Shown here one piece after another: positions 54,101-56,992 of a DNA stretch of 64,000 nt. Location of the stretch: assembly GCF_003334335.1 (NCBI RefSeq), contig NZ_QOWQ01000028.1. One strand, 5' to 3'. Origin of the DNA: Escherichia coli. Lineage in GTDB: Bacteria > Pseudomonadota > Gammaproteobacteria > Enterobacterales > Enterobacteriaceae. How positions within the stretch are numbered: position 1 is the first letter of the stretch; the number at the start of each line of letters is the position of its first letter. Both the position numbers and the translations under genes were made by a program. The notes beneath the pieces were generated by a model. That model made no database searches. It saw only the letters and a program-made list of their open reading frames with translations, and had not been told where the DNA came from.

Positions 54101-55783
54101 ATGAAGTCTGCATTAAAGAAAAGTGTCGTAAGTACCTCGATATCTTTGATACTGGCATCTGGTATGGCTGCATTTGCTGCTCATGCGGCAGATGATGTAA
54201 AGCTGAAAGCAACCAAAACAAACGTTGCTTTCTCAGACTTTACGCCGACAGAATACAGTACCAAAGGAAAGCCAAATATTATCGTACTGACCATGGATGA
54301 TCTTGGTTATGGACAACTTCCTTTTGATAAGGGATCTTTTGACCCAAAAACAATGGAAAATCGTGAAGTTGTCGATACCTACAAAATAGGGATAGATAAA
54401 GCCATTGAAGCTGCACAAAAATCAACGCCGACGCTCCTTTCATTAATGGATGAAGGCGTACGTTTTACTAACGGCTATGTGGCACACGGTGTTTCCGGCC
54501 CCTCCCGCGCCGCAATAATGACCGGTCGAGCTCCCGCCCGCTTTGGTGTCTATTCCAATACCGATGCTCAGGATGGTATTCCGCTAACAGAAACTTTCTT
54601 GCCTGAATTATTCCAGAATCATGGTTATTACACTGCAGCAGTAGGTAAATGGCACTTGTCAAAAATCAGTAATGTGCCGGTACCGGAAGATAAACAAACG
54701 CGTGACTATCATGACAACTTCACCACATTTTCTGCGGAAGAATGGCAACCTCAAAACCGTGGCTTTGATTACTTTATGGGATTCCACGCTGCAGGAACGG
54801 CATATTACAACTCCCCTTCACTGTTCAAAAATCGTGAACGTGTCCCCGCAAAAGGTTATATCAGCGATCAGTTAACCGATGAGGCAATTGGCGTTGTTGA
54901 TCGTGCCAAAACACTTGACCAGCCTTTTATGCTTTACCTGGCTTATAATGCTCCGCACCTGCCAAATGATAATCCTGCACCGGATCAATATCAGAAGCAA
55001 TTTAATACCGGTAGTCAAACAGCAGATAACTACTACGCTTCCGTTTATTCTGTTGATCAGGGTGTAAAACGCATTCTCGAACAACTGAAGAAAAACGGAC
55101 AGTATGACAATACAATTATTCTCTTTACCTCCGATAATGGTGCGGTTATCGATGGTCCTCTGCCGCTGAACGGGGCGCAAAAAGGCTATAAGAGTCAGAC
55201 CTATCCTGGCGGTACTCACACCCCAATGTTTATGTGGTGGAAAGGAAAACTTCAACCCGGTAATTATGACAAGCTGATTTCCGCAATGGATTTCTACCCG
55301 ACAGCTCTTGATGCAGCCGATATCAGCATTCCAAAAGACCTTAAGCTGGATGGCGTTTCCTTGCTGCCCTGGTTGCAAGATAAGAAACAAGGCGAGCCAC
55401 ATAAAAATCTGACCTGGATAACCTCTTATTCTCACTGGTTTGACGAGGAAAATATTCCATTCTGGGATAATTACCACAAATTTGTTCGCCATCAGTCAGA
55501 CGATTACCCGCATAACCCCAACACTGAGGACTTAAGCCAATTCTCTTATACGGTGAGAAATAACGATTATTCGCTTGTCTATACAGTAGAAAACAATCAG
55601 TTAGGTCTCTACAAACTGACGGATCTACAGCAAAAAGATAACCTTGCCGCCGCCAATCCGCAGGTCGTTAAAGAGATGCAAGGCGTGGTAAGAGAGTTTA
55701 TCGACAGCAGCCAGCCACCGCTTAGCGAGGTAAATCAGGAGAAGTTTAACAATATCAAGAAAGCACTAAGCGAAGCGAAATAA
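54101..55783 (+). CDS. ydeN: Periplasmic sulfatase (Cys/Ser-type, formylglycine-dependent family)
   Basis: Signal peptide then sulfatase signature region (SGPSRAAIMTGR); start at MKSALKK after AGAGGA RBS, 560 aa. Confidence 0.85.
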   Translation: MKSALKKSVVSTSISLILASGMAAFAAHAADDVKLKATKTNVAFSDFTPTEYSTKGKPNIIVLTMDDLGYGQLPFDKGSFDPKTMENREVVDTYKIGIDKAIEAAQKSTPTLLSLMDEGVRFTNGYVAHGVSGPSRAAIMTGRAPARFGVYSNTDAQDGIPLTETFLPELFQNHGYYTAAVGKWHLSKISNVPVPEDKQTRDYHDNFTTFSAEEWQPQNRGFDYFMGFHAAGTAYYNSPSLFKNRERVPAKGYISDQLTDEAIGVVDRAKTLDQPFMLYLAYNAPHLPNDNPAPDQYQKQFNTGSQTADNYYASVYSVDQGVKRILEQLKKNGQYDNTIILFTSDNGAVIDGPLPLNGAQKGYKSQTYPGGTHTPMFMWWKGKLQPGNYDKLISAMDFYPTALDAADISIPKDLKLDGVSLLPWLQDKKQGEPHKNLTWITSYSHWFDEENIPFWDNYHKFVRHQSDDYPHNPNTEDLSQFSYTVRNNDYSLVYTVENNQLGLYKLTDLQQKDNLAAANPQVVKEMQGVVREFIDSSQPPLSEVNQEKFNNIKKALSEAK

Positions 55784-55834
55784 CTAAACCTTCATGCGGC
55801 GGATTTTTCCGCCGCCTTATTGAGCGAGATAGCG

Positions 55835-56992
55835 ATGCACGTTACAGCCAAGCCCTCCAGTTTTCAATGTAATCTCAAATGTGATTACTGTTTTTACCTT
55901 GAAAAAGAGTCGCAGTTTACTCATGAAAAATGGATGGATGACAGCACTCTGAAAGAGTTCATCAAACAATATATCGCAGCGTCTGGCAATCAGGTCTATT
56001 TTACCTGGCAAGGCGGTGAACCCACTCTGGCTGGCCTGGATTTTTTCCGTAAAGTTATTCACTATCAACAACGCTATGCAGGCCAAAAACGTATTTTTAA
56101 TGCATTACAAACGAATGGCATTTTATTGAATAATGAATGGTGTGCCTTTCTCAAAGAACATGAATTTCTGGTTGGTATCTCGATCGATGGCCCCCAGGAG
56201 TTACATGACCGTTACAGACGCAGTAATTCAGGTAACGGTACTTTTGCAAAAGTGATAGCAGCCATCGAGCGTCTGAAATCATATCAAGTAGAGTTTAATA
56301 CGTTAACCGTCATTAATAACGTTAATGTCCATTACCCTCTTGAGGTTTATCATTTTTTAAAATCTATCGGCAGTAAACATATGCAATTTATCGAATTGCT
56401 AGAAACCGGGACGCCGAATATTGATTTCAGTGGTCATAGTGAGAACACATTCCGTATCATTGATTTTTCTGTGCCTCCCACGGCTTATGGCAAGTTTATG
56501 TCAACCATTTTTATGCAATGGGTTAAAAACGATGTGGGTGAAATTTTCATCCGTCAGTTTGAAAGCTTTGTCAGCCGTTTTTTGGGGAATGGGCATACCA
56601 GTTGTATTTTCCAGGAGTCCTGCAAGGATAATCTGGTTGTTGAAAGTAATGGAGACATTTACGAATGCGACCATTTTGTCTATCCACAGTACAAAATTGG
56701 AAACATTAATAAATCTGAACTCAAAACGATGAACAGTGTACAACTGACAGCGCAAAAAAAACGGATTCCAGCGAAATGTCAGCAATGTGCATATAAACCT
56801 ATCTGCAATGGCGGTTGTCCTAAGCATCGTATTACTAAAGTAAACAATGAGACTGTTTCTTATTTTTGCGAAGGTTATAAAATCCTTTTTTCAACCATGG
56901 TACCTTATATGAACGCCATGGTAGAGTTAGCTAAGAACAGAGTACCGCTTTACCACATTATGGATGTTGCAAAACAAATGGAGAATAATTAA
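55835..56992 (+). CDS. ydeM: Radical-SAM anaerobic sulfatase-maturating enzyme homologue (SPASM domain)
   Basis: CNLKCDYC radical-SAM cluster motif and C-terminal Cys-rich auxiliary-cluster region; start at MHVTAK, 385 aa. Confidence 0.8.

Follow-up and report, generated by a model that had tools for sequence, protein, structure and literature searches.

The serine-type periplasmic sulfatase AtsA of Klebsiella pneumoniae and its radical S-adenosylmethionine (SAM) maturase AtsB are the closest described counterpart of the locus treated here. A further reference enzyme is the anaerobic sulfatase-maturating enzyme (anSME) of Clostridium perfringens, anSMEcpe, which acts on both Cys-type and Ser-type substrates. 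Unequal expression of the cistrons of one operon is known to be caused by operon-internal stem-loops, such as the repetitive extragenic palindromic (REP) hairpin of malE-malF and internal attenuating terminators. The present analysis deals with ydeN and ydeM, a predicted sulfatase gene and a predicted maturase gene on the plus strand of a 64,000-nucleotide (nt) stretch of Escherichia coli DNA (contig NZ_QOWQ01000028.1; the whole stretch is called the window below), and with the stem-loop that stands between them.

Databases and the literature already contain both genes with their family assignments and co-transcription; published papers (PMC10878103 and others) call ydeN a putative sulfatase and ydeM a putative anSME of E. 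coli, and the operon notation ydeNM is in use. What is new is the conserved sulfatase-maturase order together with a covarying hairpin, a small comparative observation on a stem-loop of the ordinary operon-internal kind. In the reading preferred here, which is given a probability of about 0.6, ydeN and ydeM form one operon in which the stem-loop would lower maturase expression relative to sulfatase expression, by leaky termination, by protection of RNA 3' ends or by both. The features on which this reading draws were located as follows:

54101–55783 (+): ydeN, predicted serine-type S1 sulfatase precursor of 560 amino acids (PF00884, RefSeq, S1_19 relatives)
55784–55795 (+): spacer of 12 nt between the ydeN stop codon and the hairpin (7–24 nt in orthologues; sequence not conserved)
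55796–55815 (+): stem-loop of 8 perfect pairs, 7 of them G-C, with a UUUU loop (fold, shuffles, covariation)
55816–55823 (+): interrupted T-rich tail CTTATTGA, 4 T of 8 (sequence reading)
55826–55829 (+): weak Shine-Dalgarno-like GAGA of ydeM, 5 nt 5' of the ATG and outside the stem (sequence reading)
55835–56992 (+): ydeM, predicted anaerobic sulfatase-maturating radical-SAM/SPASM enzyme of 385 amino acids (TIGR03942, Pfam, 4k36, RefSeq)

The intercistronic stem-loop in E. coli

The reading frame of ydeN runs from the ATG at 54101 to the TAA at 55781–55783 (sequence reading and open reading frame listing of 53800–57300) and that of ydeM starts at the ATG at 55835, with 51 nt between the two genes. 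This is the known ydeN-ydeM locus of E. coli K-12: both names are used by RefSeq on matching DNA in 5322 of 5426 complete E. coli genomes (about 98%; 3.6-kb stretch, a match to at least 80% of its length being required), YdeN is 100% identical to WP_001295684.1 ('ydeN sulfatase-like hydrolase/transferase') and the ydeM product is WP_001301030.1, anaerobic sulfatase maturase. The gene names used in the original prediction, an earlier note written from the letters of the window, match the RefSeq annotation, and its coordinates for genes and hairpin were exact on re-reading.

The hairpin begins 12 nt 3' of the ydeN stop codon and ends 19 nt 5' of the ydeM ATG, and its arms GCGGCGGA (55796–55803) and TCCGCCGC (55808–55815) enclose the loop TTTT (55804–55807); the perfect 8-bp GC-rich hairpin that had been claimed between the ydeN stop and the ydeM start is present as described. 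The 51-nt intergenic RNA folded to exactly this stem-loop at −18.7 kcal/mol (z −3.06, 1 of 200 shuffles as good), and 500 separate dinucleotide shuffles, of which 2 folded as well, put z at −3.25; with 101 nt of context the signal was diluted (z −1.39). Since the GAGA of ydeM lies outside the stem, it is not masked by the hairpin. Replacement of the 5' arm GCGGCGGA by GCCCCGGA is an example of a stem-breaking change.

The 20-mer of the hairpin had one match in the window with up to 3 mismatches allowed, and the 57-nt stretch from stop to start codon occurred at one place per E. coli genome (median; two at most). This stretch was present in 5337 of 5426 E. coli genomes, identical in 3002 records and with 1–2 differences in the rest. 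The stem was invariant in all five sampled E. coli variants, differences being confined to positions outside it: the first loop base, 55804, was changed in three of the five, including BL21, and the other differences fell on 55786 and 55793 in the spacer and, in one variant, also on 55766 inside ydeN. A REP element or bacterial interspersed mosaic element was ruled out, as the hairpin is single-copy in the window and found at one place per genome at the median. An Rfam scan of 53600–57400 (E ≤ 1) returned only isrK on the minus strand (20.3 bits vs 50, E 0.26), which was rejected as a chance-level match on the wrong strand. No description of the ydeN-ydeM hairpin was found in the literature searched.

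Conservation and covariation

Species-representative genomes were scanned, and ten look-ups were directed at remoter homologues; together they gave 25 orthologous loci. The Enterobacterales were represented by Escherichia, Salmonella, Citrobacter, Cedecea, Leminorella, Mixta, Yersinia, Proteus and one multi-species Enterobacterales allele, and the remaining loci came from Grimontia, Psychromonas, Shewanella, Aeromonas, Anaerobiospirillum, the betaproteobacterium Iodobacter and Fusobacterium. A YdeM homologue was encoded directly downstream of the sulfatase on the same strand in 24 of the 25 loci, with Vibrionaceae among the lineages having this order. Every proteobacterial orthologue with a short spacer (42–69 nt) carried a stable GC-rich stem-loop of 7–12 pairs between both genes, and each of the eight orthologous intergenic regions tested folded better than its own shuffles (z −2.4 to −3.6). 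The Fusobacterium spacer of 25–45 nt held a ribosome-binding site only and no hairpin.

The arms share the core GGCRGG / CCYGCC and otherwise differ in sequence, with complementarity kept. Covariation was scored over a 9-pair helix in an alignment of 14 distinct trimmed hairpins from proteobacterial lineages, which replaced a MAFFT alignment of whole intergenic regions where the E. coli and Grimontia stems were misaligned. Paired cells amounted to 92.9% vs 79.5% in the shuffled control (0 of 500 shuffles as high), compensatory cells to 23 vs 8.1 and the covariation score to 0.574 vs 0.315 (reached by 0 of 500 shuffles), and 8 of the 9 pairs were changed on both sides. When the partner was slid by 1–3 columns as a control, pairing was 42–66%. 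Already between E. coli and E. albertii, the least distant of the species compared, a base pair of the stem differs at both positions, G-C against A-U.

The stem ended 12–23 nt before the ydeM ATG in 15 lineages and the hairpin began 7–24 nt after the ydeN stop; in Grimontia, where the ydeN stop codon is about 100 nt away, the hairpin still stands 14 nt before the ydeM ATG. Judged by these comparisons, the stem-loop is an ancestral part of the module, apparently selected for structure from Escherichia to Iodobacter. The conserved feature is the stem, while the U tail is frequent but dispensable.

Tails, RNA 3' ends and transcript levels

A GC-rich stem-loop as expected of an intrinsic terminator is provided by the E. 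coli hairpin (8 pairs, 7 G-C, 4-nt loop, −18.7 kcal/mol). In Leminorella, Citrobacter, Cedecea and Grimontia the counterpart of this hairpin was called as a terminator by a simple scan, and a U tract of at least 5 T in 8 nt was also counted manually in Y. enterocolitica and in the Salmonella_82 allele. Over 15 lineages, T made up 55% of the 8 nt after the stem vs 32% in the 5' spacer (Fisher p 9e-5) and 18% further downstream (p 3e-10), the lineages not being independent and the range being 2–6 T.

PMC10878103 describes ydeN and ydeM as transcribed together, names ydeN as directly targeted by AraC and reports high expression of the two genes in an araC mutant; binding of AraC upstream of ydeN was seen only when arabinose was present (PMC3738151). 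Table S3 of PMC10878103 lists AraC, GadX and NagC as repressors of both genes and gives, for the mouse gut, average counts of 5399.1 (ydeN) and 371.5 (ydeM) in an araC-deleted triple mutant and of 92.3 and 21.7 in the control. After length correction of these counts, ydeM lay about 10-fold below ydeN in the mutant and about 3-fold below it in the control; the counts are compatible with polymerases that read through the hairpin at a strongly reduced level. The sulfonated azo dye FD&C Red No. 40 is reported to induce ydeN significantly and no other E. coli gene (PMC10653809), and at pH 4.4 ydeN is reported to be one of the most strongly repressed genes (PMC10746267). A search of the window for the AraC half-site TAGC-N7-TCCATA, meant to locate the AraC site reported upstream of ydeN, gave 44 matches vs 49 expected by chance and nothing useful in 53700–54100.

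A Rho-dependent region inside ydeM is listed by Adams et al. 2021 at K-12 position 1579674(−) (Rho score 3.37, p 5e-5, about 30 reads). A search for direct 3'-end evidence found no entry in SMRT-Cappable-seq data or in the supplements of acid-stress ribosome profiling (Ribo-seq). The K-12 position of the Rho-dependent region presumably corresponds to about 56905 (+) of the window, in the 3' part of ydeM, as converted with K-12 gene coordinates.

Proposed mechanism and alternatives

In the preferred reading, both genes would be transcribed from the ydeN promoter, which is AraC-repressed with arabinose according to the literature. At the hairpin, whose U tail is weak, some RNA polymerases would end transcription, transcripts ending at the hairpin or trimmed back to it would be protected from 3' exonucleases, and read-through transcripts would carry ydeM, itself equipped with a weak ribosome-binding site. 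Much sulfatase and little maturase would be the outcome, which would fit a stoichiometric enzyme and its catalytic activator. YdeN would be made as a precursor with a signal peptide of the general secretory (Sec) pathway and a Ser in S-x-P-x-R; YdeM, with one SAM-binding and two auxiliary [4Fe-4S] clusters, would act in the cytoplasm, oxidising Ser132 of YdeN to C-alpha-formylglycine in an oxygen-independent reaction that precedes export, and active YdeN would then be exported by Sec to work in the periplasm. Conversion of the serine by YdeM is what membership in the two families leads one to expect, and for the hairpin we infer termination or stabilisation. The earlier idea of a hairpin that might govern the ratio of expression, a guess when it was made, is strengthened by covariation in 14 lineages and by published RNA-seq with both genes derepressed and roughly 10-fold lower ydeM RNA, but the simple terminator scan made no call at the E. 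coli hairpin and one Term-seq study lists no 3' end at this site.

Several observations weigh against the operon with a leaky or protective stem-loop. In E. coli the tail CTTATTGA has 4 T of 8 where the U-tract criterion asks for at least 5, and the terminator scan made no call there or at the Mixta hairpin; in the Salmonella 74% allele (Salmonella_74) and in Shewanella/Aeromonas the tail is U-poor, with 2–3 T of 8. The curated Term-seq 3' ends of Adams et al. 2021 (lysogeny broth and M63 glucose) contain no ydeN or ydeM entry at the junction, the genes being weakly expressed there. The RNA-seq ratio stems from one in-vivo data set whose count units were not seen defined, and does not tell termination from differential decay; the sequences of the covariation alignment were cut around predicted hairpins, which favours structure. 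A conserved stem next to an unconserved tail would suit a stem-loop that acts only as a barrier to 3'-to-5' exonucleases, with transcripts from Rho termination or endonuclease cuts trimmed to a stable ydeN-only mRNA. The Rho-dependent region inside ydeM and the missing scan call in E. coli point the same way, and PMC6061677 has as its stated subject how Rho-terminated RNAs are trimmed to a stem-loop. A pure barrier, however, would need no T run, whereas T averages 55% after the stem and canonical T runs occur in several orthologues, and no protected 3' end stands at this site in the Adams et al. data set, so that this explanation is held to be unlikely, though it is the first among the alternatives.

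The remaining alternatives are graded lower still. The near-constant distance of the hairpin from the ydeM ATG, kept in Grimontia, could mean that the structure serves ydeM itself, by protecting the 5' end of a processed ydeM mRNA or by insulating its ribosome-binding site from upstream sequence or from ribosomes finishing ydeN. With an intergenic region of 42–69 nt, however, neither distance can be long; the only informative cases are Grimontia and Psychromonas, each with a second hairpin near the stop codon. The hairpin also makes no contact with the Shine-Dalgarno sequence, and ydeM RNA is below ydeN RNA, which leaves a role at the ydeM 5' end improbable. Slightly less credit still is given to an efficient terminator that would end a monocistronic ydeN, with ydeM transcribed from a promoter of its own inside the ydeN 3' end. 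Deletion of araC raises ydeM about 17-fold vs about 58-fold for ydeN, which could mean an AraC-independent source of ydeM, and the Anaerobiospirillum intergenic regions of 250–520 nt, with T-run hairpins, have room for a separate promoter. Yet ydeM is strongly derepressed together with ydeN and described as co-transcribed (PMC10878103), a scan for sigma-70-like sites on the plus strand of 54063–56431 found none, the hairpin leaves 19 nt to the ATG, and the U tail in E. coli is a weak one. Being a perfect inverted repeat, the palindrome may also be a protein-binding site at the DNA level, or it may be without function; change on both sides in 8 of 9 pairs is expected for an RNA helix and not for a one-protein operator or neutral sequence, and the site is unique in the window, is no REP-type repeat and, as part of the 57-nt stretch, has one place per genome at the median. 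Because of the hairpin covariation this explanation is ranked last, as highly improbable, below the full terminator with an internal promoter, which follows the ydeM 5' role and, at the head of the alternatives, the exonuclease barrier alone.

YdeN as a serine-type sulfatase

Features of ydeN at nucleotide level were located as follows:

54090–54093 (+): Shine-Dalgarno core GAGG of ydeN, 7 nt 5' of the ATG (sequence reading; RefSeq uses the same ATG)
54101–54187 (+): probable Sec signal peptide, residues 1–29, MKSALKKSVVSTSISLILASGMAAFAAHA followed by ADD (sequence reading by eye)
54494–54508 (+): codons of S132-G-P-S-R136, the formylglycine signature (alignment to 9hh3/9hh2; invariant in 25 orthologues)

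The Pfam model Sulfatase (PF00884) matched YdeN at 1e-70 over model positions 1–301 of 301. The signature H-G-V-S132-G-P-S-R136-A-A-I-M-T-G-R contains C/S-x-P-x-R followed by xxxxTG, with Ser at the modified position, and SGPSR was kept in 25 of 25 YdeN orthologues. In HMMER alignments Ser132 was matched to the catalytic Cys in wild-type 9hh3 and to the Ser in its mutant 9hh2, and the catalytic and metal motifs MDDLGYG, GKWHL, YNAPHLP, TSDNGA and KGYKSQTYPGG were aligned with those of the S1_19 structure; we take the metal-binding and catalytic roles to belong to the DD of DDxGYG near the N-terminus, the K and H of GKWHL, the H of NAPH, the D and N of SDNG and the K of KG.K. YdeN is assigned, on its sequence, to the serine-type S1 sulfatases because Ser132 aligns on the catalytic Cys and the other motifs are aligned as well. 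The earlier claim of a sulfatase is upheld by the Pfam match, the serine-type signature and the Sec-like N-terminus, and the question raised with it, Ser or Cys at the active site, was settled by alignment as Ser (S132), with the C/S-x-P-x-R motif present.

The N-terminus, MKSALKK...AAHA-ADD, combines a basic n-region, a hydrophobic core and an AHA-A cleavage motif and is a probable Sec signal peptide; similar N-termini were seen in those orthologues whose N-termini were inspected. Detection of YdeN in outer-membrane-vesicle proteomes (PMC7973035) is consistent with export.

YdeN stayed below the NCBIfam equivalog cut-offs for PRK13759 arylsulfatase (124 bits vs 481) and choline-sulfatase (97 vs 433) and was therefore given no substrate-specific name, and the earlier statement that the native substrate is not apparent remains true. 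Its best solved relatives (6B0J, 6BIA, 6PSM, 9HH2; E 2e-52 to 6e-43, residues 105–439) all belong to S1_19, a subfamily of endo- and exo-acting galactose-4-sulfate carrageenan sulfatases for which SulfAtlas lists 4S-iota and 4S-kappa carrageenan sulfatases. This likeness is taken as a lead on specificity, possibly galactose-4-sulfate, and not as subfamily membership. Among the neighbour genes compared, no carrageenan or glycan-utilisation genes were found near ydeN-ydeM loci. No biochemical report on YdeN was found in the literature searched, and according to PMC10878103 substrates have not been reported.

YdeM as an anaerobic sulfatase maturase

Codons of the cluster-binding residues of ydeM were located as follows:

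55868–55891 (+): codons of C12-x3-C16-x2-C19, the CX3CX2C radical-SAM motif (equivalent to anSMEcpe C15/C19/C22)
56603–56869 (+): auxiliary-cluster cysteines C257, C263, C278, C315, C318, C324, C328 and C345, together with D279 (mapping on anSMEcpe)

TIGR03942 matched YdeM with 505.5 bits (cut-off 349.45) over model positions 1–362 of 363, and the Pfam models Radical_SAM and SPASM both matched. Residues 4–359 were aligned with anSMEcpe (4k36; E 6e-63), and a scripted mapping of this alignment found all 11 cluster cysteines of anSMEcpe kept in YdeM. C257, C263, C278 and C328 correspond one-to-one to anSMEcpe C255, C261, C276 and C330, and C315, C318, C324 and C345 to C317, C320, C326 and C348; D279 corresponds to D277. 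In anSMEcpe we take C15/19/22 to bind the radical-SAM cluster, C255/261/276/330 to bind auxiliary cluster I and C317/320/326/348 auxiliary cluster II, and D277 is presumably the proposed catalytic base. YdeM can accordingly be named, by family model and residue mapping, a predicted anaerobic sulfatase-maturating radical-SAM/SPASM enzyme. The radical-SAM/SPASM maturase of the original prediction was recovered at 505 bits vs 349 for TIGR03942, and the three Cys clusters on which it had been made to depend are all present on careful alignment to 4k36. Deletion mutants of E. coli in aslB and ydeM reportedly still mature a Cys-type sulfatase.

A longer ydeM from the TTG at 55820 was rejected because both RefSeq and the orthologues support the ATG at 55835, the proteobacterial orthologues all starting at an equivalent ATGCAC or ATGCAT. 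In E. coli strain 167 (NZ_CM132968.1), ydeM is split by an IS1A insertion sequence into pieces annotated as 'radical SAM protein' and 'SPASM domain-containing protein', and the ydeN of FDAARGOS_401 carries the annotation of a pseudogene truncated at the N-terminus; some strains can dispense with the module.

The sulfatase-maturase pair across genomes

A Ser in the sulfatase signature is known to be converted only by an anSME-type enzyme, which fits a dedicated pairing. As judged from its signature, the YdeN clade is serine-type throughout (25 of 25) and nearly always accompanied by its own anSME (24 of 25), and this accounts for an oxygen-independent maturase beside ydeN. Apart from thiI, seen at two unrelated loci, no other neighbour family was common to unrelated loci. 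The neighbours were housekeeping or unrelated genes (thiI, htpX, feoB, nhoA), a NanA-like lyase and an RpiR regulator in Mixta, and a family-4 glycosidase in Leminorella; as a substrate clue they allowed no conclusion, no family being shared beyond related genomes. To go by its gene content, the pair behaves as a self-contained two-gene module. Mobile-element neighbours were found in several genera (insertion sequence elements, an integrase, a Y1 transposase and, in Proteus, a Rep3 plasmid replicase), and the ydeN-ydeM stretch occurred at 8 plasmid places in E. coli. The mobile-element flanks suggest horizontal transfer of the pair as a unit.

The sole locus of the 25 without a paired anSME is a second YdeN-like allele of some E. 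coli (ERR10711952, L026:2501-4198; 77% identical, cluster of 303 member sequences), where no maturase was found within 2.5 kb downstream. This allele adjoins a porin gene and an IS110 transposase and has a different, T-poor hairpin 3' of its stop codon. A contig assigned to a 'Candidatus Nanosynbacter sp.' metagenome-assembled genome (JARKOR010000108.1) carries ydeP-ydeO-ydeN-ydeM-yddA with a YdeN that is 100% identical; this locus is almost certainly E. coli contamination of the bin.

Flanking features

In RefSeq the pair is flanked by ydeP-safA-ydeO upstream and by yneP (opposite strand), yddA and yddB downstream. One further plus-strand structure was noted 3' of ydeM:

57043–57074 (+): stem-loop 51 nt 3' of the ydeM stop codon (−21.5 kcal/mol, z −3.59, 0 of 200 shuffles as good)

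This stem-loop is probably the 3' end structure of the operon; its tail TTTCGTCA is weak like that of the ydeN-ydeM hairpin, and the terminator scan made no call. A 40-amino-acid YneP is annotated by RefSeq at 56958–57080 (−), antisense to the final 35 nt of ydeM, and its frame crosses the stem-loop 3' of ydeM. On the other side of the pair, a hairpin that is terminator-like on both strands, GGGGCAGCCATTCCCTGCCCC flanked by T runs, was seen at 53747–53769 just 3' of ydeO, between this gene and the 401-nt AT-rich region upstream of ydeN.

Meaning and comparison with known systems

Since the genes are already known, the analysis has little importance beyond tidy annotation. The hairpin offers a small and clean system in which to ask how a weak terminator or a stabilising structure sets an enzyme-to-maturase ratio, and a serine-type YdeN with a dedicated anSME points experiments to anaerobic conditions. 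The question of real interest is which gut substrates the cryptic sulfatases of E. coli act on; sequence narrows it slightly, the closest solved relatives being galactose-4-sulfate sulfatases. A bolder picture, put forward as a speculation that is very probably wrong, would make ydeN, hairpin and ydeM a horizontally mobile three-part cassette in which the stem-loop acts as a conditional attenuator tuning the maturase:sulfatase ratio, with read-through answering to a signal such as anaerobiosis, an RNA-binding protein or ribosomes translating the end of ydeN, while the enzyme would desulfate 4-O-sulfated galactose or N-acetylgalactosamine of dietary carrageenan or of host chondroitin or mucin in the anoxic gut.

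The S1_19 sulfatases have the same catalytic motifs as YdeN. The wild-type S1_19 enzyme 9HH3 has Cys at the formylglycine position where YdeN has Ser, and YdeN differs from the S1_19 structures by about 24 additional residues (85–108; 54353–54424) between DDxGYG and the formylglycine segment, where the HMMER alignment breaks. With anSMEcpe (PDB 4K36-4K39), YdeM shares the 11 cluster cysteines, the GGE motif and Asp277 (Asp279 in YdeM). The ydeN-ydeM hairpin differs from the malE-malF REP hairpin in being single-copy and no REP or interspersed mosaic element, with a U tail that is sub-threshold in E. coli; it resembles the malE-malF type as a stable GC-rich hairpin right after a highly expressed gene, ydeN, with lower RNA of the following gene, ydeM.

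The gene order in Klebsiella is reversed, atsB standing before atsA, and YdeN does not reach the arylsulfatase equivalog cut-off given above. In both systems, a serine-type S-x-P-x-R sulfatase with a signal peptide is encoded in one operon with an anSME-family enzyme of three Fe-S clusters. The likeness extends to the logic, which for ydeN-ydeM is predicted: a cytoplasmic, oxygen-independent conversion of Ser to formylglycine, followed by Sec export.

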